Made by a program: the position numbers and the translations under genes. The notes under the pieces were generated by a model, which searched no databases, was not told the origin of the DNA, and was given only the letters and a program-made list of their open reading frames with translations. DNA of 64,000 bases from Escherichia coli. Its GTDB lineage: Bacteria > Pseudomonadota > Gammaproteobacteria > Enterobacterales > Enterobacteriaceae. Shown piece after piece: positions 7,392-60,630 of this stretch; position 1 is the stretch's first letter; each line of letters begins with the position of its first letter. The stretch lies in the NCBI RefSeq assembly GCF_002854065.1, contig NZ_CP024147.1; one strand, written 5' to 3'.

Positions 7392-7754
7392 TCAGATACT
7401 TTCGTTAGCAGCCATCCATAATCCATAAAGGTTGGCCAGCAAATAGCCTTCTTCACACGGGTTAACTTCCAGTGCGAATTCCTTCAACAACACCTGATGC
7501 AATTGCACAACGGCTTGCCAGTGGCTGGATTGCGCCAGCTCTGCCAGCAACTCGTTATCCAGTGGCTCAATTTCTTCACCACGGCGACTGCGCATCAGTG
7601 CACTCGCCATATGTGTCATCGCCATCGTTCCTTGCTCACTGCGCACCGGCAGATGGCACTCTGTTTCCAGTACCTTGACGACCTGCATCATGCCTTTGCA
7701 GATGTCCTTATCAATAACGCCTGCATCGCAAAGCAGGTTGAGTCTGGTTTCCAT
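7392..7754 (-). CDS. yhfY: YhfY (120 aa); start taken at internal Met METRLNL
   Basis: K-12 length 120 aa; ORF-track start at 7796 would overlap yhfZ. Confidence 0.75.
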   Translation of the reverse strand: METRLNLLCDAGVIDKDICKGMMQVVKVLETECHLPVRSEQGTMAMTHMASALMRSRRGEEIEPLDNELLAELAQSSHWQAVVQLHQVLLKEFALEVNPCEEGYLLANLYGLWMAANESI

Positions 7755-7770
7755 ATCAGATGCCTTTCGT

Positions 7771-8676
7771 TTAATAACTCGGTTCCTGTTCCCCACTCAC
7801 CACCCGTTGTTGATGGGCGAGCAGGGCGTGTTTATCTACAACGGCACGCAGCAGTTGTTGCATTGGGTAATCATCGACTCGCGTCAGGACCACGGCTTCG
7901 GTGGCCTGTAAAAATCGCGGATCGTCTGTGAGCGGCGTCGCCTCTAATCCCAGCATGGTCAGTTCGTTTTCCGCCACCACGTTCCAGATAACCGCATCAA
8001 CATCGCCTTTAACAATGCGTTGTAAACTCTCGTGATAAGAGAGATCGACTCGTTCCACATCACTACCGCCAAAAAAGACATCAGTCATGATTTTCTGATC
8101 CGCCGAACGGTTATCCAGCCCCACGCGCTTCACGTTTGCGGACTCGCCTTTACGGCAAATCAACTGGTGCTCGCCAACGTAGGTGTGCGGCCCCAACTCC
8201 AGCGCGAGGCATAACCCTTTTTGCGTGAGATAACTTTCCGCCGCCAGTCGGGAAACCACCGCCATGTCATACACGCCGTTAAGTAAACACTCCACGCGAA
8301 TATCCGCGCCGCGCATATGCGCATAGTAAAAAGGAATGCCATCAAACTGGGCTTTCAATCCGCTCGCTAAACCTTCGTACAAGCGGGTATAGGGCAAAGG
8401 CATCGCACATACCACGTTGTTGATATCCACATGACTCAGCAATGCTTTGTTATCCATCTCGACCAGATAACTGCCATTGCGCCCACGGCGTTCAATCCGT
8501 ATCGCTCCGCTTGATTCCAGCGTTTTCAACGCGGCCTGCGTCAGGCCAACGGATGAACGGCATTCAGTGGCCAGTTCATCTATAGTTTTCAATCGGTTAC
8601 CGCACTTTTCACCCAACAAATAACGGGCCAGCGTCGTGATGACGACGCCTTCTTTTTTGATAAACGTTCGACGCAT
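7771..8676 (-). CDS. yhfZ: YhfZ, putative regulator with N-terminal HTH (301 aa)
   Basis: ORF 301 aa; synteny. Confidence 0.85.
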   Translation of the reverse strand: MRRTFIKKEGVVITTLARYLLGEKCGNRLKTIDELATECRSSVGLTQAALKTLESSGAIRIERRGRNGSYLVEMDNKALLSHVDINNVVCAMPLPYTRLYEGLASGLKAQFDGIPFYYAHMRGADIRVECLLNGVYDMAVVSRLAAESYLTQKGLCLALELGPHTYVGEHQLICRKGESANVKRVGLDNRSADQKIMTDVFFGGSDVERVDLSYHESLQRIVKGDVDAVIWNVVAENELTMLGLEATPLTDDPRFLQATEAVVLTRVDDYPMQQLLRAVVDKHALLAHQQRVVSGEQEPSY

Positions 8677-8834
8677 AATAAATTTTCAGTAAATTGAATA
8701 TTTATATCTTCAGGAATTTGAAGATAAGGCGCAACTGTGAGATGTGGAAACGGCGAGGCGCTTCACATTTTTTCGGATTATTGCAAATGAGGATAAAAAA
8801 ACCGGGTTTCCCCGGTTTTGGCATTAATGTTAAA

Positions 8835-9839
8835 TTACGGCTTCGCCACAAAACCAATCGCTTCGTACACCGCTTTTAGCGTACGGGAAGCGTGCGCGCT
8901 GGCTTTTTCTGCGCCGTCTTTCATCACCTGTTGCAGGAAGGCTTCATCGTTGCGGAAACGGTGGTAACGTTCCTGCAATTCAGTCAGCATACCGGAAACG
9001 GCATCAGCCACTTCACCTTTCAGATGACCATACATCTTGCCTTCGAACTGTTTTTCCAATTCCGGGATACTCTGGCCCGTTACCGCAGAAAGGATATCCA
9101 GCAGGTTGGAAACGCCCGCTTTGTTCTGCACATCGTAGCGAACTACCGGCGGCTCGTCGGAGTCGGTGACCGCGCGTTTGATTTTCTTCACTACCGATTT
9201 CGGATCTTCCAGCAGGCCAATAACGTTATTGCGGTTATCGTCAGACTTGGACATCTTCTTGGTCGGCTCCAGCAGCGACATTACGCGCGCGCCGGATTTC
9301 GGAATAAACGGCTCCGGCACCTTAAAGATATCGCCGTACAGCGCGTTGAAACGCTGGGCGATATCACGGCTCAGTTCCAGGTGCTGTTTCTGGTCTTCAC
9401 CCACCGGTACCAGATTAGTTTGATACAGCAGGATGTCCGCTGCCATCAGCACCGGATAGTCAAACAGACCAGCGTTGATGTTCTCGGCATAACGCGCAGA
9501 TTTATCTTTAAACTGCGTCATGCGGCTCAGTTCGCCGAAGTAGGTATAGCAGTTCAGTGCCCAGCCTAACTGCGCATGTTCCGGTACGTGGGACTGAACA
9601 AAAATGGTGCTTTTCTCAGGATCGATACCACAAGCCAGATACAAGGCCAGCGTATCCAGCGTCGCTTTACGCAGCTTCTGTGCATCCTGGCGCACGGTGA
9701 TCGCGTGTTGGTCAACGATACAGTAAATGCAATGGTAGTCATCCTGCATGTTTACCCACTGACGCAGCGCACCCATGTAGTTACCAATGGTCAATTCACC
9801 TGAGGGCTGTGCGCCACTAAAAACGATGGGCTTAGTCAT
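8835..9839 (-). CDS. trpS: Tryptophanyl-tRNA synthetase (334 aa), HIGH-like TIGN and KMSKS motifs
   Basis: ORF contains [10 protein letters not shown] and KMSKS. Confidence 0.97.
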
Positions 9840-10590
9840 TTTTCGATTCCTGATTTTCGCTATGCGGAAGCCCTAATGCGGGCAGAAGGTCATTTATAGA
9901 CTGATAAATTACATCAGGCTGGCTGAGATCGATAGCCTCGCCGTAGTTATATCCGTAGGTTAAGCCAACTGATGGGCAACCTGCCGCTTTTGCTGCCTGA
10001 ATATCATTGCGTGAGTCGCCAACAAACAGCATCTGTTGTGGAGCAATTCCCATCCGCTCAGCCACCAGTAACAGCGGGTCCGGATGCGGTTTTTTGTTTT
10101 GCACATCATCACCACCAATCACCACGCTGAAGTATTTGGCGATATCTAAGGCTTCGAGCAGCGGCGCGACGAACGGCGTCGGTTTGTTGGTGACCAGGCC
10201 TAGCGGCAGGCCTTTAGCCTGCAACGCGCCCAACGTATCGGCAACGTGCGGGAACAAAAACGTCCCCTCTTCGGCAACCTCGCCATAGTAGCGATCGAAC
10301 AGTTTACGCAGAATACGTACCTGTTCTTCTGCCGGAATGTCGTCATCAACGGGCGGTTTACCCATTGTTTTACGCAGAGTCGCACGTTCCTGACGCGCCC
10401 AGGTCAATGCGCGCTCCATCAGAACATCTGCGCCGTTACCAATCCAGGTAATAACGCGTTCTTCACCTGCGACGGGCAACTCCAGCGCATACAGCGCCAT
10501 ATCTACCGCAGCAGCAAGACCGGGAGCACTGTCCACCAGCGTACCGTCGAGATCAAAAGCGACGCCGCGAATATCTTCAAACTTACTCAT
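9832..10590 (-). CDS. gph: Phosphoglycolate phosphatase (HAD family, 252 aa)
   Basis: HAD motif FDLDGTL; overlaps trpS start by 8 nt. Confidence 0.95.
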
Positions 10591-11260
10591 GACTTACCTT
10601 TGCCAGTTCACTGCGCATTTCATCAATGACTTTTTTATAGTCTGGCTGGTCGAAGATTGCCGAACCGGCGACGAACATATCCGCGCCCGCCGCAGCGATT
10701 TCGCCAATGTTGTTCACCTTCACGCCACCGTCCACTTCCAGACGAATGTCAAAGCCAGACTCGTCGATACGACGACGTACTTCGCGCAGTTTATCCAGTG
10801 TTTGAGGAATGAAAGACTGACCGCCGAAACCAGGATTGACGGACATCAGCAGGATCACATCCAGCTTATCCATCACGTAATCCAGATAGCTCAGAGGTGT
10901 CGCCGGGTTAAATACCAGACCCGCTTTACAGCCATTTTCTTTAATCAGTTGCAGCGTGCGGTCAACATGCTCGGAGGCTTCTGGATGAAAGGTAATGATG
11001 CTGGCACCAGCGGCAGCGAAATCAGGCACAATGCGATCGACAGGTTTCACCATCAGGTGTACGTCGATAGGGGCGGTAATGCCATAGTTACGCAAGGATT
11101 TCAGCACCATTGGCCCAATCGTCAGATTGGGAACATAGTGGTTATCCATGACGTCAAAATGCACGACATCAGCGCCAGCTGCCAGGGCTTTTGCGGTATC
11201 TTCACCCAGGCGGGCAAAATCAGCCGACAGAATTGAGGGGGCAATCAAATACTGTTTCAT
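10583..11260 (-). CDS. rpe: Ribulose-phosphate 3-epimerase (225 aa)
   Basis: ORF 225 aa recognised; overlaps gph start. Confidence 0.95.
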
Positions 11261-11277
11261 CCGCTTCTCCTTGAGAA

Positions 11278-12114
11278 TTATTTTTTCGCGGGTGAAACGA
11301 CTCCTGGTTTGTACAAAGCCAGCAGTTCGTCCACCTTTTTACGTGTGCCGCCGTTGCTGCTTATACTGCGTCGAACTTTGACGACATGCAATTTTGCGCG
11401 CTGATACCACTCACGCGTTAACATCGTATCGTGATTGGAGATCAGCACAGGAATATGGCGATCAACCAGACCTTCGGCGATCTCCGCCAGATGCGCTTGT
11501 TGTTCAAGCGTAAAACTGTTTGTGTGATACGCCGTAAAGTTGGCGGTCGCAGACAGCGGTGCATAAGGCGGATCGCAATAGACGACGGATGCATCATCTG
11601 CGCGCGCCATGCTATCGGCGTAAGACTCACAATAGAAAAAGGCATTCTGCGCTTTTTCAGCGAAGTGATACAACTCTGCTTCCGGGAAATAGGGTTTTTT
11701 GTAGCGGCCGAACGGCACGTTAAACTCACCGCGCAGATTGTAACGACACAGGCCGTTGTAACCGTAGCGGTTCAAATATAAAAACAGTACCGCCCGACGG
11801 AACGGATCCTGGCTTTTGTTGAACTCTTCGCGGAACTGATAGTAAACCTCGGCGCAATTTGTTTCGGGAACAAACAGCTCGCGTGCGGCCTGTACGTACT
11901 CATCAGTACGCATCTTCACAATGTTATAGAGACTGATCAGGTCGCTATTGATATCGGCAAGGATATAACGAGAAAAGTCGGTGTTGAGAAACACCGACCC
12001 GGCACCTACAAAAGGCTCAACCAGACATTCGCCCTTGGGCAAATGCCGTTTAATATCATCAAGCAGGGGATACTTGCCCCCTGCCCACTTCAAAAAAGCG
12101 CGATTTTTCTTCAT
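11278..12114 (-). CDS. dam: DNA adenine methyltransferase Dam (278 aa), DPPY motif
   Basis: ORF contains [11 protein letters not shown]. Confidence 0.97.
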
Positions 12115-12220
12115 GCTGACTAACTAATTACACCTTCTCCGGCTGTGGAGAAAGCTCCGACAGCATCCAGCGCTTCAGGCAGCTCCCGCAACGATAAACC
12201 ATTGCGGGAGATAACCTTGA

Positions 12221-13507
12221 TTACTTCAGATCGGCCTGTACCTGACGCAGCGGTTTCGCCCACGGGTTTTTGGCCTGGACATCTGCTGGCAATGTAGATA
12301 CCGCTTTTTTCGCCTCTTCTTTCGAAGCGTACACGCCAGAAACCAGGACATACCACGGCTGACCATTACGCGTCGTTTCATAGACAACGTAGTTTTTCAG
12401 ATTCTCTTTCTTCGCCCAACCGTTCAGGTTGTCGTAGTTAGAGGAACTGCTCAGCTGCAGAGTGTAATGGCTGGACGGTGCCGATTTCAACGAACCCACA
12501 TTACCTGCGGTCTTCCCTCCAGCGGCTGGTGTTGCCGTGGTTTGCGCCGGGGATGCCGTCTGTACTGGAGCCGTAGTCGCCGTCTCTTTTGGTGCTGGCG
12601 TAGAAGTCGCAGCCGGTGCCTTCGTGCTCGCCACAGGAGCAGCTGGTTCAGTACGCTTCGGCGTCTGTGCTACCGGCTTCGGTTCCGTTTTCACGGTTGC
12701 TTGCGGTTTTTTCGGTTCAATCACCGCCTGCTGACGAGCTGGACGCGTAGTGGCCGGACGTTCAGCAGTTTGCGTTTTCGCCGTGTCACGCGATGCATTG
12801 CCATTGCGTACTGGCGCGACAGTTGCTGGTTCAGTCGGCAATGTAGAATTGACCGCCACATTGTTCAACTGTTGCTGATTTTGTGGCTGGGTCAGCGCAT
12901 TGTTCAGGTCACCCTGCACTTCAACACGTTGTTGACCATCCGTTGCCGCCGGGGTTTGCCCTTGAGTCGGCGTAGAAGAGATCGGCGGCAGAGAAACATC
13001 CTGCTGAGTATTTTCCGCAGACGTGGTTCCCGGCGCTGGCTGCACGCCATTCGCCTGATCGGTCGCATTGCCAGCAAGATCAATACTCTTCTCGCCAGAC
13101 GCGGTTTGATCGCTGGAAGTGGTCGAGGGGGCTTTTAGCGCAGAACCGATACCGATGATCAACAGCAGTAGAACCAGAATGCCGACGCCCATCATCATAT
13201 ACTGACGAGAAGCGGGTTTACTGGCTGCTTTTTTGCGCTTACGCGGACGACGCTCTACGCGCTCTTCATCCACGGTTTCATCTTCGGACTCGTCAATTTC
13301 TTCTTCGATTTCCGGTTCCTCATTGCGCTCTTTTTGCGCACGAGTCGGACGGCGATCGTCAGTGTCATCAAGTTCAATATCATCAAAATTGATCTGCGGT
13401 TCGCCACGTTCAGTACGCTCAGAACGTTCAGAAGATTGACGAGAACGACCAGTACGACGATCGCTGGGATCGGGTTTCAGCTCGTCTTCTGGTTTGAATT
13501 CATCCAT
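12221..13507 (-). CDS. damX: DamX, cell-division protein with C-terminal SPOR domain (428 aa)
   Basis: ORF 428 aa with acidic N-terminus and Pro/Thr/Ala-rich linker. Confidence 0.93.
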
Positions 13508-13598
13508 TTAACACCCCACTAAAAGGTTAATGCTTACCACGTTGCAATTAACCTGAAGCTAATAGACCGCTTGATAAGCGGCCTGACCTTTCTTGTTG

Positions 13599-14687
13599 TT
13601 ACGCTGATTGACAATCGGCAATGGCGTTAAGAACAAGCTCGTGCGAAACACCGCTGCGAACTTCACTCTTACCAATTGCCAACGGAAGAATTAAGCGCAT
13701 CTCTCCCGCAAGGACTTTCTTGTCACGCAGCATATGCGGTAAATACGCCTGCGCGGACATTTCGCGCGGCCCATTGACCGGTAACCCAGCCCGCGTGAGC
13801 AGAGTTATAATACGCTGCGTTTCGGCAGAACTAAACTGCCCGAGACGTTCCGACGTCCGCGCCGCCATCACCATACCCGCAGCGACCGCTTCACCATGTA
13901 ACCAATTGCCATACCCCATTTCAGCTTCAATGGCATGACCAAAGGTGTGTCCCAGATTCAGTAAAGCACGTAACCCGGTTTCGCGCTCGTCGGCGGCGAC
14001 AACTTCTGCCTTCAGTTCACAACAACGGCGAATACAGTACGCCATTGCCGGACCGTCCAGACGCAACAACGCATCCAGATTCTCTTCCAGCCAGTTGAAA
14101 AACGCACCGTCAAGAATAATGCCGTATTTGATGACTTCTGCCAGCCCCGACGCTAACTCACGCGGGGGAAGCGTTTTCAGACAGTCGAGATCCACCACCA
14201 CTGAAGCAGGCTGGTAGAACGCGCCAATCATGTTTTTACCGAGGGGATGGTTGACCGCAGTTTTGCCGCCAACGGAGGAATCGACCTGCGACAGTAACGT
14301 CGTCGGGACTTGAATGAAACGAACACCGCGCTGATAACTCGCCGCCGCGAAGCCGGTCAGATCGCCCACTACGCCGCCGCCAAGCGCCACCAGCGTAGTA
14401 TCGCGACCATGCGGCTTTTGTAACAACGCCGTAAAGACGGTATCGAGTACAGCCAGGCTTTTATACTGCTCGCCGTCAGGAAGGATAACGCTATCGACGT
14501 TAACACCCGCCTGTTCAAGTACGCCGCGGACCTTATCGAGATACAGAGGAGCCAGGGTTTCGTTGGTGACCAACATGACCTGCTCGCCCGATTTCAGCGG
14601 TAAGAATGAAGCTGGTTCATTAAACAAACCAGATGCGATGGTAATTGGGTAACTACGTTCCCCGAGAGTAACGACAATCCTCTCCAT
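13599..14687 (-). CDS. aroB: 3-dehydroquinate synthase (362 aa)
   Basis: ORF 362 aa recognised. Confidence 0.97.
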
Positions 14688-14743
14688 AACGCGACATCCA
14701 CCTTAATTACTGTACCCGCAGACGAGTGTATATAAAGCCAGAA

Positions 14744-15265
14744 TTAGTTGCTTTCCAGCATGTGAATAATCTGGTTTGCAACCACTTTAGCGCTTTGATC
14801 ATCAGTACGAATGGTCACGTCGGCAATCTCTTCATACAGCGGATTGCGTTCATTGGCCAACGCTTCCAGAACTTCACGTGGCGGTGTTTCAACGTGCAGC
14901 AACGGGCGTTTTTTATCACGCTGCGTGCGTGCAAGTTGCTTTTCGATGGTCGTTTCAAGATAAACGACAACGCCACGAGCGGAAAGACGGTTACGCGTTT
15001 CACGGGATTTCACAGAGCCGCCGCCAGTAGCCAGCACAATACCCTGTTTCTCGGTCAACTCATTGATGACCTTTTCTTCGCGATCGCGGAAGCCTTCTTC
15101 GCCTTCTAAATCGAAAACCCAGCCCACATCAGCTCCGGTTCGTTTCTCAATCTCTTGATCGGAATCGTAAAATTCCATATTGAGTTGTTGAGCTAACTGG
15201 CGCCCAATAGTGCTTTTTCCGGCACCCATAGGCCCAACCAGAAAGATATTGCGTTTCTCTGCCAT
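14744..15265 (-). CDS. aroK: Shikimate kinase I (173 aa); ORF-track start at 15466 is over-extended
   Basis: Start [19 protein letters not shown] (Walker A) at 15263..15265. Confidence 0.95.
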
Positions 15266-15665
15266 TTTTTCGGTACTACTAAGACTATTCGTTAATGATA
15301 AACCCGCTTCGCTCAGAGAGCGCCGCAGGACATGAACTGAAACCTCATAAGATATTGCGAGAGTCAGACTGAAAATTATCTCAATACTCCAGCGGGTTTG
15401 GCAACTGAATAAATCACCCATCCCTCTGCATATCTGGTCGCTGCAAGCGCGCTGCCTTGCTACCACCGCTCTGGCGATAAATCACCGGGTAAGATTAGCG
15501 TAAAAAAGACAGCAAAATGCCGCCTGAATGATAAATCATCATCATGGAACGCAGGCAGCGAAGAGCACCAACTCTCAAATCGGTACTCCTTGTATGCTAA
15601 ATACCTGCGCGCGTCAAATAGATGAAACACGTTCAGCGTAAAAACATTACCGCTTTTACGGCTGT

Positions 15666-16904
15666 TTACTCACTGGAAACCAGTCGTGGCGTGATAAACA
15701 CCACTAACTCGCGTCGTTCATCTTCTTTTCCGTCATGACGAAATAATTGCCCGAACCAGGGAATGTCGCCAAGCAACGGCACGCTATCCTGACCCGATTT
15801 ATTTTTACGGGTAAAAATGCCGCCCAGCGCCAACGTTTCTCCGCTTTTGACCTCGACCTGCGTTTCGATCTCCTGCTTATCAATCGCCAGCACTTCGCCA
15901 TCGGCCTGCTGTAGCACCTGCCCCGGAACGTTCTGGCTGATGTGTAATTTCAGCCGGATGCGACCTTTTTGTAACACCGTGGGCGTGACCTCCATCCCCA
16001 GGACTGCCTCTTTAAATTCCACCGACGTCGCGCCACTTTCCCCGCTGGAAACTTGATATGGAATTTCGCTCCCCTGTTTAATGCTGGCAGGCTGAAGATG
16101 TGAGGCCAGCAGACGCGGACTAGCGATAATATCCAGCTGCTGTTTTTGTTCGAGCGCAGAAAGCTCAAGATCCAGCAAACGTCCGTTGATGCGCCCAATG
16201 TTAAAACCGACATGCGTTGTCGCCGTCGCTACGGAGAGGTCGCTGCCAAGCGTGGTGACTTGCCCAACGCCACCAGCTTGTTGCGCATCGGCCAGCGTCC
16301 ATTTCACGCCTAACTCACGCAAACTTTTTTCATTAATGGTGACAATATGCGCCGACAGCTCAACCTGCCCGACCGGCAGATCCATTTGCGCTACCCACTG
16401 TTCAAGGGCGCTTAACGCCGTTTTGTTATCTCGTAGCAAAAGGCGATTGGTGCGTTTATCGACGGTCATACTCCCTTTGGCACTCAGTAGCTTTTCCCCA
16501 GCTTTCGCCAGCTCTCCGGCGTCGGCGTATTGCAGAGTAATATTGCGATTTTCCAGCGGCAGATTTGCCTGCGCCCGCGCCTGCTCCGCTTCCTGACGGG
16601 CGATATTGTCATTCTGCCAGGCAATGGAATGCACTGAGAGAATGTTGCCCTCCTGGCGCGTTATCAGTCCGGCGCTTTTCACTACAGTTTGTAGTGCCTG
16701 CTTCCAGGGAACATCTGTTAGATGTAACGACACCGTACCGCTGACGTCTGGCGACACCACCAGGTTCAACTTCTCCTGTTCAGCCAGCGCCTGCAACACC
16801 TGAGCTACCGGAACGTCATCCACCATCAGCGTCACTTTTTGCGGCTTTGCCGCCTGTACGCCGGGTATCAGCATCAACAGTAGTGCGGCTATCCATTGCT
16901 TCAT
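15666..16904 (-). CDS. hofQ: HofQ, secretin-family outer-membrane channel (412 aa)
   Basis: ORF 412 aa, signal peptide; synteny. Confidence 0.93.
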   Translation of the reverse strand: MKQWIAALLLMLIPGVQAAKPQKVTLMVDDVPVAQVLQALAEQEKLNLVVSPDVSGTVSLHLTDVPWKQALQTVVKSAGLITRQEGNILSVHSIAWQNDNIARQEAEQARAQANLPLENRNITLQYADAGELAKAGEKLLSAKGSMTVDKRTNRLLLRDNKTALSALEQWVAQMDLPVGQVELSAHIVTINEKSLRELGVKWTLADAQQAGGVGQVTTLGSDLSVATATTHVGFNIGRINGRLLDLELSALEQKQQLDIIASPRLLASHLQPASIKQGSEIPYQVSSGESGATSVEFKEAVLGMEVTPTVLQKGRIRLKLHISQNVPGQVLQQADGEVLAIDKQEIETQVEVKSGETLALGGIFTRKNKSGQDSVPLLGDIPWFGQLFRHDGKEDERRELVVFITPRLVSSE

Positions 16905-17220
16905 TTGTATCTCCTTGCCGTTGCCACAACCATTGTGGCGGTTCGCAGTTTGTCCCGGTACCCAGCGTTAGTACGTCTGGCGTCAGCTGTAAAATTGTCC
17001 AGCCGTTTTCCAGCACATCGTTTTGCTGCACCCGTCGCCATTTCTTTTGCCCGTCTTTTATTACACCGATGATGCGCTCGCCTCGCCCTACCATCCCCTG
17101 ATAGCGCCACTGGCTAAGTTCGCTAATCCGGCATAGATCTTCCGGCGGTTTAAAAGGGTCACGCATACCGGTTAAAAGGCACAATGCAATACCTGCCAAC
17201 AACCAGCGTTTAACCCTCAT
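16816..17220 (-). CDS. hofP: HofP (134 aa), start at MRVKRWLLAGIALCLL
   Basis: K-12 length; ORF track over-extended. Confidence 0.85.
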   Translation of the reverse strand: MRVKRWLLAGIALCLLTGMRDPFKPPEDLCRISELSQWRYQGMVGRGERIIGVIKDGQKKWRRVQQNDVLENGWTILQLTPDVLTLGTGTNCEPPQWLWQRQGDTNEAMDSRTTVDADTRRTGGKAAKSDADGG

Positions 17221-17650
17221 GCGGCGTCTCCAGTTGTAGGGTGAACAAAAGATCATCACCTTCCACGCTTAATGAAAAACGGCTCACGCTGACGTTGCGC
17301 TCTGCCAGCCGTGTAAATGCCGACGGCACTGCTTCCCACAGCGTTTTCAACGCCAACTCGCCTCCCTGCGCGGATGGATGCCAGGAAACCAGTTGCGCGC
17401 CGGATAACTGAAAATCCAGTGGCGAAAAGGGCAGCGTTTTTTCCTCGCTGAAGGGAGTGGTGTCTACCAGGCGATACAGTGCGGCCCACTGCTGGTGATG
17501 ACTTGCCCGTAGTCGAATTAATGCGTCGCTCTCTTCATGATGTGTCGATGACAGAAAAATGAGCGTAACTAACATCAGCAACCAGACTGCCCAGCAAAGC
17601 TGGCGGAGACGGGGTGATGTGGCGAACCACCAGTCAAAGAACATGTTCAT
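17210..17650 (-). CDS. hofO: HofO (146 aa)
   Basis: ORF 146 aa; synteny. Confidence 0.88.
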   Translation of the reverse strand: MNMFFDWWFATSPRLRQLCWAVWLLMLVTLIFLSSTHHEESDALIRLRASHHQQWAALYRLVDTTPFSEEKTLPFSPLDFQLSGAQLVSWHPSAQGGELALKTLWEAVPSAFTRLAERNVSVSRFSLSVEGDDLLFTLQLETPHEG

Positions 17651-60534: not shown

Positions 60535-60630
60535 GCCTGATGCGCTACGCTTATCAGGCCTACGTGGTTTATGCAATATGTTGAATTTGCATGATTTTGT
60601 AGGCCTGAGAAGGCGTTCACGCCGCATCAG
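60535..60630. repeat. BIME: two REP units in inverted orientation (GCCTGATGCGCTACGCTTATCAGGCCTAC and GTAGGCCTGAGAAGGCGTTCACGCCGCATCAGG)
   Basis: REP consensus recognised downstream of glpD. Confidence 0.75.

Follow-up and report, generated by a model that had tools for sequence, protein, structure and literature searches.

Positions 8835-15265 of the window (the whole stretch of DNA that we analysed, i.e. 64,000 nucleotides of the Escherichia coli contig NZ_CP024147.1, assembly GCF_002854065.1) carry seven genes (aroK, aroB, damX, dam, rpe, gph, trpS), which we assign, with a probability of about 97%, to the ordinary and intact E. coli aroK-aroB-damX-dam-rpe-gph-trpS cluster, transcribed as a nested set from the minus strand. 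This cluster is already known and bears in the literature the name "dam-containing superoperon" (PMC4213855, PMC4981707), in agreement with an earlier note on this DNA (hereafter the sequence-only reading), which had described it as a well-known superoperon. Since the minus strand carries all of them, the direction of the operon is aroK > aroB > damX > dam > rpe > gph > trpS; the sequence-only reading had named the right genes, but its list, running from trpS to aroK, followed the plus strand and is the reverse of the order of transcription. The products are largely unrelated in function: AroK and AroB belong to the shikimate pathway, DamX to cell division and Dam to the methylation of GATC sites, while Rpe is a pentose-phosphate epimerase, Gph a phosphoglycolate phosphatase and TrpS the tryptophanyl-tRNA synthetase. 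According to this locus, the window belongs to the ordinary core chromosome of E. coli, and the strain has an intact Dam, an intact TrpS and intact shikimate enzymes; the locus also provides an anchor for the rest of the window (organism, strand and offset to K-12).

Identification of the seven genes

A six-frame listing of the open reading frames (ORFs) of positions 7500-17500 returned seven consecutive minus-strand ORFs that fill 8835-15265, exactly the co-directional genes and coordinates given by the sequence-only reading. The ORFs, the profile searches and the RefSeq annotation of K-12 and of a 100%-identical strain concur in placing seven genes on one strand and in one order between hofQ (15666-16904, beyond aroK) and yhfZ (7771-8676, beyond trpS), i.e. 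the arrangement of the E. coli dam-containing superoperon. All seven genes start with ATG and stop with TAA, none has an internal stop, and the seven proteins score above the curated cut-offs of their NCBIfam equivalogs. A search of the seven genes for frameshifts, premature stops or rearrangements found none; the frames are thus intact, as had been stated, and the genes have the lengths of their K-12 counterparts. The spacers are of 56 nt (aroK-aroB), 91 nt (aroB-damX), 106 nt (damX-dam) and 17 nt (dam-rpe), and hofQ is separated from aroK by 400 nt.

AroK matched the NF003456 equivalog over its entire length (residues 1-173 of 173; 359 bits for a cut-off of 195), whereas the AroL model gave 123 bits, below its cut-off of 161. 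DamX possesses the C-terminal SPOR domain (Pfam PF05036, residues 345-418) of the DamX proteins, and a strong AT skew at 12250-13000 is consistent with its linker rich in Q, P, T and A. Dam contains the Pfam domain MethyltransfD12 (PF02086) and the S-adenosylmethionine motif FxGxG, in the form FVGAG (residues 35-39). It belongs to the orthologous group of the D12-class N6-adenine DNA methyltransferases, and the corresponding activity is predicted. The DNA pattern for CDPPYAPL has a single match in the window (11555-11577), where none is expected by chance. Both motifs that the sequence-only reading had pointed out, namely DPPY in Dam and Walker A in AroK, were located by a motif search (Table 1). 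Gph harbours the HAD motif DLDGT (residues 13-17), and TrpS carries the class I aminoacyl-tRNA synthetase signatures KMSKS (residues 195-199) and TIGN (residues 17-20, at the HIGH-type position). The Shine-Dalgarno sequence AAGGAG of rpe lies 6 nt ahead of its ATG.

Taken mechanically, the aroK ORF reaches a GTG codon at 15466, while the ATG at 15265 is the RefSeq start. We rejected the longer version from the GTG (240 amino acids), since MAEKRN is the beginning of the profile and of all inspected orthologues, and the part ahead of it lacks conservation at the protein level. Long plus-strand ORFs also occur antisense to trpS (8892-9569, 225 amino acids), rpe (10589-11236, 215 amino acids) and damX (12467-13138, 223 amino acids); we regarded them as a mechanical consequence of the sequence of the coding strand.

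Overlapping junctions and conservation beyond E. coli

The overlaps of 8 nt noticed earlier between trpS and gph and between gph and rpe could be read directly from the sequence (Table 1). The context of the rpe/gph junction is ...GTAAGTC ATGAGTAA GTTTGAA..., in which the rpe stop TAA lies within the gph start, and that of the gph/trpS junction is ...CGAAAA ATGACTAA GCCC..., in which the gph stop lies within the trpS start. The Shine-Dalgarno-like sequences AAGG and AGGA are found inside the 3' end of the gene upstream. This packing of the last three genes, with the start codon 8 nt inside the preceding gene and a Shine-Dalgarno-like sequence close to it, would favour a coupling between the translation of rpe and that of gph, and likewise between gph and trpS.

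The conservation of the cluster was surveyed in species-representative genomes sampled as one set of matches to the CDPPYAPL pattern (at least 120 loci), the gene order being established by tblastn with eight E. coli proteins and the start codons at the junctions being picked heuristically; all survey figures below hold among the matches listed, and negative distances denote overlaps. The order hofQ-aroK-aroB-damX-dam-rpe-gph-trpS is shared by Enterobacterales, Vibrionales, Aeromonadales and the majority of Alteromonadales. The description of the cluster as conserved is borne out both within E. coli (5424 of 5426 genomes, see below) and across several gammaproteobacterial orders. The arrangement is not due to chance, as the order is near-universal in E. 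coli and the -8 overlaps recur across the Enterobacteriaceae, where they were found in 19 of 19 cases at rpe/gph and in 15 of 17 at gph/trpS. The other Enterobacterales displayed rpe/gph values of -8 (nine cases), -17 (six), -11 (three) and -1, +1 or +2 (one each; n = 21), and gph/trpS values of -8 (four cases) or, for the rest, mostly -4 to +24. In Aeromonadales rpe/gph was -14 in five of six loci, and gph/trpS ranged from +9 to +251; in Vibrionales and Alteromonadales the ranges were mostly -1 to +14 and -4 to +184, respectively, with three outlying Vibrio at rpe/gph (101 nt in two of them, 405 nt in the third). All overlap lengths are of the form 3k+2, so that rpe and gph stay in the same frame relative to each other while the junction moves by whole codons. 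The exact 8-nt form is mainly a feature of the Enterobacteriaceae, also present in Yersinia and Rahnella. Values of -681, -684, -101, -92 and -71 were discarded as most likely resulting from tblastn matches running across a stop codon or from errors of the heuristic start choice.

The nearest non-Escherichia sequences that we examined, those of Citrobacter and Enterobacter, have -8/-8 junctions and Dam proteins that are 83-87% identical. The dam-containing superoperon of Salmonella enterica has been described with the same seven genes (PMC4213855), a likeness that we take from the description. The clusters of Vibrionales, Aeromonadales and Shewanella keep the same order and strand, with a pilQ-like hofQ first, but differ in several respects: rpe/gph and gph/trpS mostly do not overlap (apart from the 14-nt rpe/gph overlap of Aeromonas), the gph/trpS spacers measuring 5 to 250 nt, DamX is recognised only in its C-terminal SPOR part, and the sequence of the aroK leader is different. 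In Shewanella the dam-rpe spacer extends over 760-920 nt, as compared with 14-70 nt in most Enterobacteriaceae, and within the gap of about 1500 nt between aroB and dam there is probably a DamX whose divergence hides it from tblastn. The Shewanella dam-rpe spacer (eight loci) offers room for an extra gene. In Pasteurellales (six loci) aroK, aroB and dam are adjacent on one strand, with an aroB-dam spacer of -11 to 55 nt; because of this direct adjacency of aroB and dam, which also holds for Idiomarinaceae (two loci), damX is missing from the cluster in both lineages. In those Pasteurellales loci that extend far enough, tblastn did not place rpe, gph or trpS after dam, and in Legionella, Neisseria and others it detected no other gene of the operon beside dam on the same strand.

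Transcription of the cluster

The co-transcription and the internal promoters of the dam operon are taken from the literature (PMC4981707, PMC4213855). In the mechanism that we propose, transcription would begin at promoters upstream of aroK, giving nested transcripts, promoters inside the cluster would supply the distal genes, and transcription would stop at an intrinsic terminator directly after trpS. Løbner-Olesen et al. 1992 reportedly mapped five dam promoters, the major ones upstream of aroK, and Lyngstadaas et al. 1995 (cited in PMC4981707) are said to have defined rpe, gph and trpS as the distal genes. The best promoter-like match of the region lies upstream of aroK (10/12, with TG). 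Both of its hexamers are invariant in 12 genera of Enterobacteriaceae, and the site is recognisable in 24 of 25 upstream regions of Enterobacterales (the exception being one metagenome-assembled genome); in two Photorhabdus, TTGCCA is replaced by TTGCAA. The literature places dam promoters inside damX (PMC4981707), where the promoter-like site at 12461-12490, about 350 nt upstream of dam, would fit. At the other end of the operon, the hairpin past trpS (8819-8798) consists of nine pairs followed by TTTTTTTAT (-14.2 kcal/mol, z = -2.8, from the terminator scan and the fold), which predicts an intrinsic terminator after trpS.

Several observations weigh against this reading, all of them concerning the mechanism only, as we found no evidence contradicting the identification of the cluster. 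First, the promoter-like matches in the region amount to six, for 6.5 expected in shuffled sequence, i.e. no excess. As a consequence, conservation alone singles out the site upstream of aroK, and we infer from the sequence which of the promoter-like sites may be real promoters. Second, the proposed translational coupling of rpe-gph and gph-trpS is inferred from the geometry of the junctions. Third, in K-12, RNA 3' ends were mapped by Term-seq inside aroK (+59) and damX (+544), and a weak region of Rho-dependent termination was found in aroB (PMC7815308). From these internal 3' ends and the Rho region, some transcripts should be shorter than the full operon. Fourth, the K-12 Term-seq list has no 3' end at the trpS terminator.

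The internal 3' ends in aroK and damX, the promoter-like sites within the cluster and the unrelated functions of the products would also be compatible with the view that the seven genes are mere neighbours, each with its own promoters and terminators, and that the overlaps reflect compaction without functional consequence. From the following lines of evidence, we regard this view as very unlikely. First, two of the junctions overlap, so that a promoter or a terminator at these places would have to sit inside a coding region. Second, the terminator scan detected no strong terminator-like site between the seven genes, and the only clean intrinsic terminator follows trpS. Third, the order of the genes is kept across several orders of bacteria. 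Fourth, in Salmonella rpe, gph and trpS are transcribed more in the wild type than in the dam mutant (PMC4213855), and the cluster has been called an operon (PMC4981707). The nested transcription of one cluster is therefore the reading that we retain.

In Salmonella, transposon insertions in the aroK-hofQ, damX-aroB and dam-damX spacers cause phenotypes similar to those of insertions in dam and damX (PMC7242855). A control of aroK by GcvB was considered and rejected, as the literature describes aroK as unaffected (PMC11878033).

Comparison with K-12 and other E. coli genomes

The K-12 MG1655 counterpart of the cluster is b3390-b3384 (NC_000913.3, 3512634-3519064), and to the right of trpS the K-12 coordinate equals the window coordinate + 3,503,799. 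K-12 and the window share the seven genes, their order, strand relation and lengths, both 8-nt overlaps, all spacers (the 400 nt between hofQ and aroK included) and the terminator hairpin. The alignment to K-12, which the sequence-only reading had proposed as a check, runs from trpS to beyond aroK over 6868 nt with 71 substitutions (98.97% identity), no gap and no indel inside the operon. The seven proteins together differ from those of K-12 by eight amino-acid changes: E170D in TrpS; N2S and Q72L in Gph; E218D in Dam; K298T in AroB; and V187A, S252A and A331G in DamX. AroK and Rpe are identical to their K-12 counterparts, and the aroK gene differs by 1 nt. The N2S change of Gph (AAT to AGT) falls in the overlap and is silent in the rpe frame (GAA to GAG). 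The operon is colinear with K-12, and the check left one discrepancy: the interval that separates the stop of trpS from the terminator hairpin contains in K-12 (3512487-3512631) a 131-bp repetitive extragenic palindromic (REP)/bacterial interspersed mosaic element (BIME), which is absent from the window (8819-8834).

When positions 8600-15700 were compared with the 5426 complete genomes of an E. coli collection, 5424 of these contained at least 80% of the query, with 95-100% identity; 1067 records are at least 99% identical to it, and strains 100416 and CUWW06 are 100% identical. The RefSeq annotation of CUWW06 lists the same seven genes with identical boundaries. The REP/BIME insert of the K-12 type occupies the site downstream of trpS in 1735 of the 5426 genomes, the others having no insert or a different one. 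The eight residues at which the proteins depart from those of K-12 (Dam E218D and Gph N2S being among them) and the 131-bp difference downstream of trpS might suggest a functional change specific to this strain (pseudogene, insertion, recombinant segment or loss of Dam activity). Such a change is hardly credible, since the frames are intact and of K-12 length, the catalytic motifs are unaltered, the profile matches are full-length and above cut-off, two other isolates have a sequence that is 100% identical and 1067 records one that is at least 99% identical, and the REP/BIME lies outside the genes and is polymorphic across the collection.

The comparison returned 5429 matching places in all. 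One of these lies in the record of a plasmid, and a single genome of the 5426 is without any match. A third allele downstream of trpS is about 110 bp longer than that of the window (the matches span 7211 nt), and the O157:H7 match ends at the end of trpS.

Table 1. Coordinates of the genes, motifs, junctions and predicted signals of the cluster (positions in the window; aa, amino acids).
Feature	Position	Strand	Description	Support
aroK	14744-15265	minus	Shikimate kinase I, 173 aa; first gene	Pfam SKI
AroK Walker A (P-loop)	15212-15235	minus	GPMGAGKS, residues 11-18	Motif search on the translation
aroB	13599-14687	minus	3-Dehydroquinate synthase, 362 aa	TIGR01357, 408 bits (cut-off 305)
damX	12221-13507	minus	SPOR-domain cell-division protein, 428 aa	NF008153, 851 bits (cut-off 256)
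dam	11278-12114	minus	DNA adenine methyltransferase, 278 aa	NF008152, 582 bits (cut-off 441)
Dam catalytic motif	11563-11574	minus	DPPY, residues 181-184	Motif search
rpe	10583-11260	minus	Ribulose-phosphate 3-epimerase, 225 aa	TIGR01163, 320 bits (cut-off 213)
gph	9832-10590	minus	Phosphoglycolate phosphatase, 252 aa	NF009694, 557 bits (cut-off 415)
trpS	8835-9839	minus	Tryptophan--tRNA ligase, 334 aa; last gene	TIGR00233, 392 bits (cut-off 177)
rpe stop/gph start overlap	10583-10590	minus	ATGAGTAA, 8 nt	Sequence
gph stop/trpS start overlap	9832-9839	minus	ATGACTAA, 8 nt	Sequence
Intrinsic-terminator-like hairpin and T run	8791-8819	minus	Predicted end of the operon	15 nt past the trpS stop
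Promoter-like site upstream of aroK	15375-15404	minus	TTGCCA, 18-nt spacer, TGAGATAAT ((TG)A GATAAT)	Scan
Promoter-like site inside damX	12461-12490	minus	TTGAAA, 18-nt spacer, TACACT	Scan, 9/12
Distal promoter-like block	15589-15617	minus	TTGACG, 17-nt spacer, TACAAG	Consensus and conservation
Terminator-like hairpin and U run	15501-15559	minus	Between the promoter-like blocks; E. coli-type insert	Scan; -27.6 kcal/mol, z = -2.8
Predicted aroK leader	15266-15368	minus	About 100 nt, conserved across Enterobacterales	Alignments
Structured damX-dam spacer	12115-12220	minus	106 nt	Predicted minimum free energy -46.1 kcal/mol, z = -4.6
Predicted hairpin inside dam	11975-12000	minus	Codons G-S-V-F-L-N-T-D of motif I	9-11 pairs, -14.9 kcal/mol

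Candidate cis-acting RNA elements

Besides the assignment of the cluster, and as an extension of it rather than an alternative, we considered that the expression of the operon may be shaped by cis-acting RNA structures that carry no annotation, namely the leader of aroK, the spacer between damX and dam and the hairpin inside dam. We see this as possible, though on the unlikely side, and we are somewhat more doubtful still that conserved RNA elements of the operon, so far undescribed, control the expression of aroK and dam. The three structures are predictions, to be regarded as leads, not as findings. If they were confirmed, their importance would be modest: mismatch repair, replication timing and phase variation require that Dam be scarce and its amount closely controlled, the post-transcriptional share of this control is poorly described, and the RNA elements together could set the low level of Dam post-transcriptionally.

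The hofQ-aroK spacer (15266-15665) comprises two blocks conserved across the Enterobacterales, both of them promoter-like: the site upstream of aroK dealt with above and a distal block, whose TTGACG and TAGCWTACAAGG are retained in an alignment of 17 Enterobacterales. The distal block was missed by the promoter scan because its -10 element lacks the final T. In E. coli about 110 nt situated between the two blocks carry the terminator-like hairpin of 15501-15559. A strong "orphan" RNA 3' end of K-12 (3519310, i.e. window position 15511) has been recorded at this very place in two of the listed conditions (PMC7815308 supplement 1). The combination of the distal block, the terminator and the orphan 3' end suggests either an unannotated RNA some 70 nt long or an attenuated aroK leader. 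The distal block of E. coli is followed by two hairpins and a U run (15501-15617, minus strand).

Beyond its conservation across the Enterobacterales, the predicted aroK leader, which follows the promoter-like site closest to aroK, has three features. Hairpin 1 is invariant (CUGAcUCUCG...UGAGGuuUCAG, with GAGG buried in it). Hairpin 2 differs in sequence and in length between families, and it nevertheless folds in 23 of 23 species (-9.5 to -20.3 kcal/mol); it was folded sequence by sequence, as RNAalifold on MAFFT alignments misaligns this variable hairpin. The 3' part is a conserved segment ending in GAAAAAAUG, and aroK has no Shine-Dalgarno sequence ahead of its ATG. Moreover, RNA 3' ends of K-12 fall in the leader region, including one at 72 nt upstream of aroK (3519136, i.e. 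window position 15337), which is not Rho-dependent and has an intrinsic terminator score of 2.68 (PMC7815308). Conversely, hairpins 1 and 3 showed no significant covariation, their columns being almost invariant. A small ORF in the leader (GAGG, 9 nt, ATG; MSCGAL* in E. coli) was rejected, as its ATG is absent from six genera (Rahnella, Brenneria, Hafnia, Edwardsiella, Photorhabdus and Pantoea) and a 2-nt indel shifts the frame between E. coli and its relatives.

The damX-dam spacer is predicted to be strongly structured. Its proximal 65 nt are conserved in Enterobacteriaceae, and it contains an 11-pair hairpin restricted to E. coli and E. albertii. The AUGCUGUC box (about 12150-12160), which is conserved, could base-pair with (GU)CAGCAU in the start region of dam or, alternatively, with the loop of the hairpin next to it. 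The helix that this box would form at the dam start codon showed no true covariation, and its pairing is predicted only. As with leader hairpins 1 and 3, the want of a covariation signal follows from the conservation of the sequence.

The hairpin inside dam lies in a coding sequence, and six of its nine pairs are dictated by the amino acids. The other three pairs join synonymous third positions, and among 42 Enterobacterales their complementarity exceeds the expectation: Ser3-Thr3 is paired in 32 of 42 sequences, with all four Watson-Crick types, and Val3-Asn3 in 34 of 42. The covariation of the whole helix reached 0.186, as compared with 0.096 in shuffles, a value attained by none of the 500 shuffles, though these shuffle tests ignore phylogeny. 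Against an empirical null, for which the same dam alignment supplied every third-position pair with a spacing of 2-12 codons, Ser3-Thr3 ranked 27th of 1527 and Val3-Asn3 47th of 997 (top 2-5%), while Gly3-Asp3 was unremarkable. The complementary signal gives moderate support and is absent from Vibrionales. We did not retain the hairpin as a working terminator, as the K-12 Term-seq data contain no RNA 3' end within dam and only a few genera possess the U run.

Within 8600-15800 no Rfam family matched at the gathering threshold, the sole match with E < 1 being HIV-1 SL4 (E = 0.35), which is at chance level. The sole Rfam match above gathering in the whole window is the ES036 (CssrF) small RNA, at 60556-60598 on the minus strand (39.3 bits for a threshold of 37.6).

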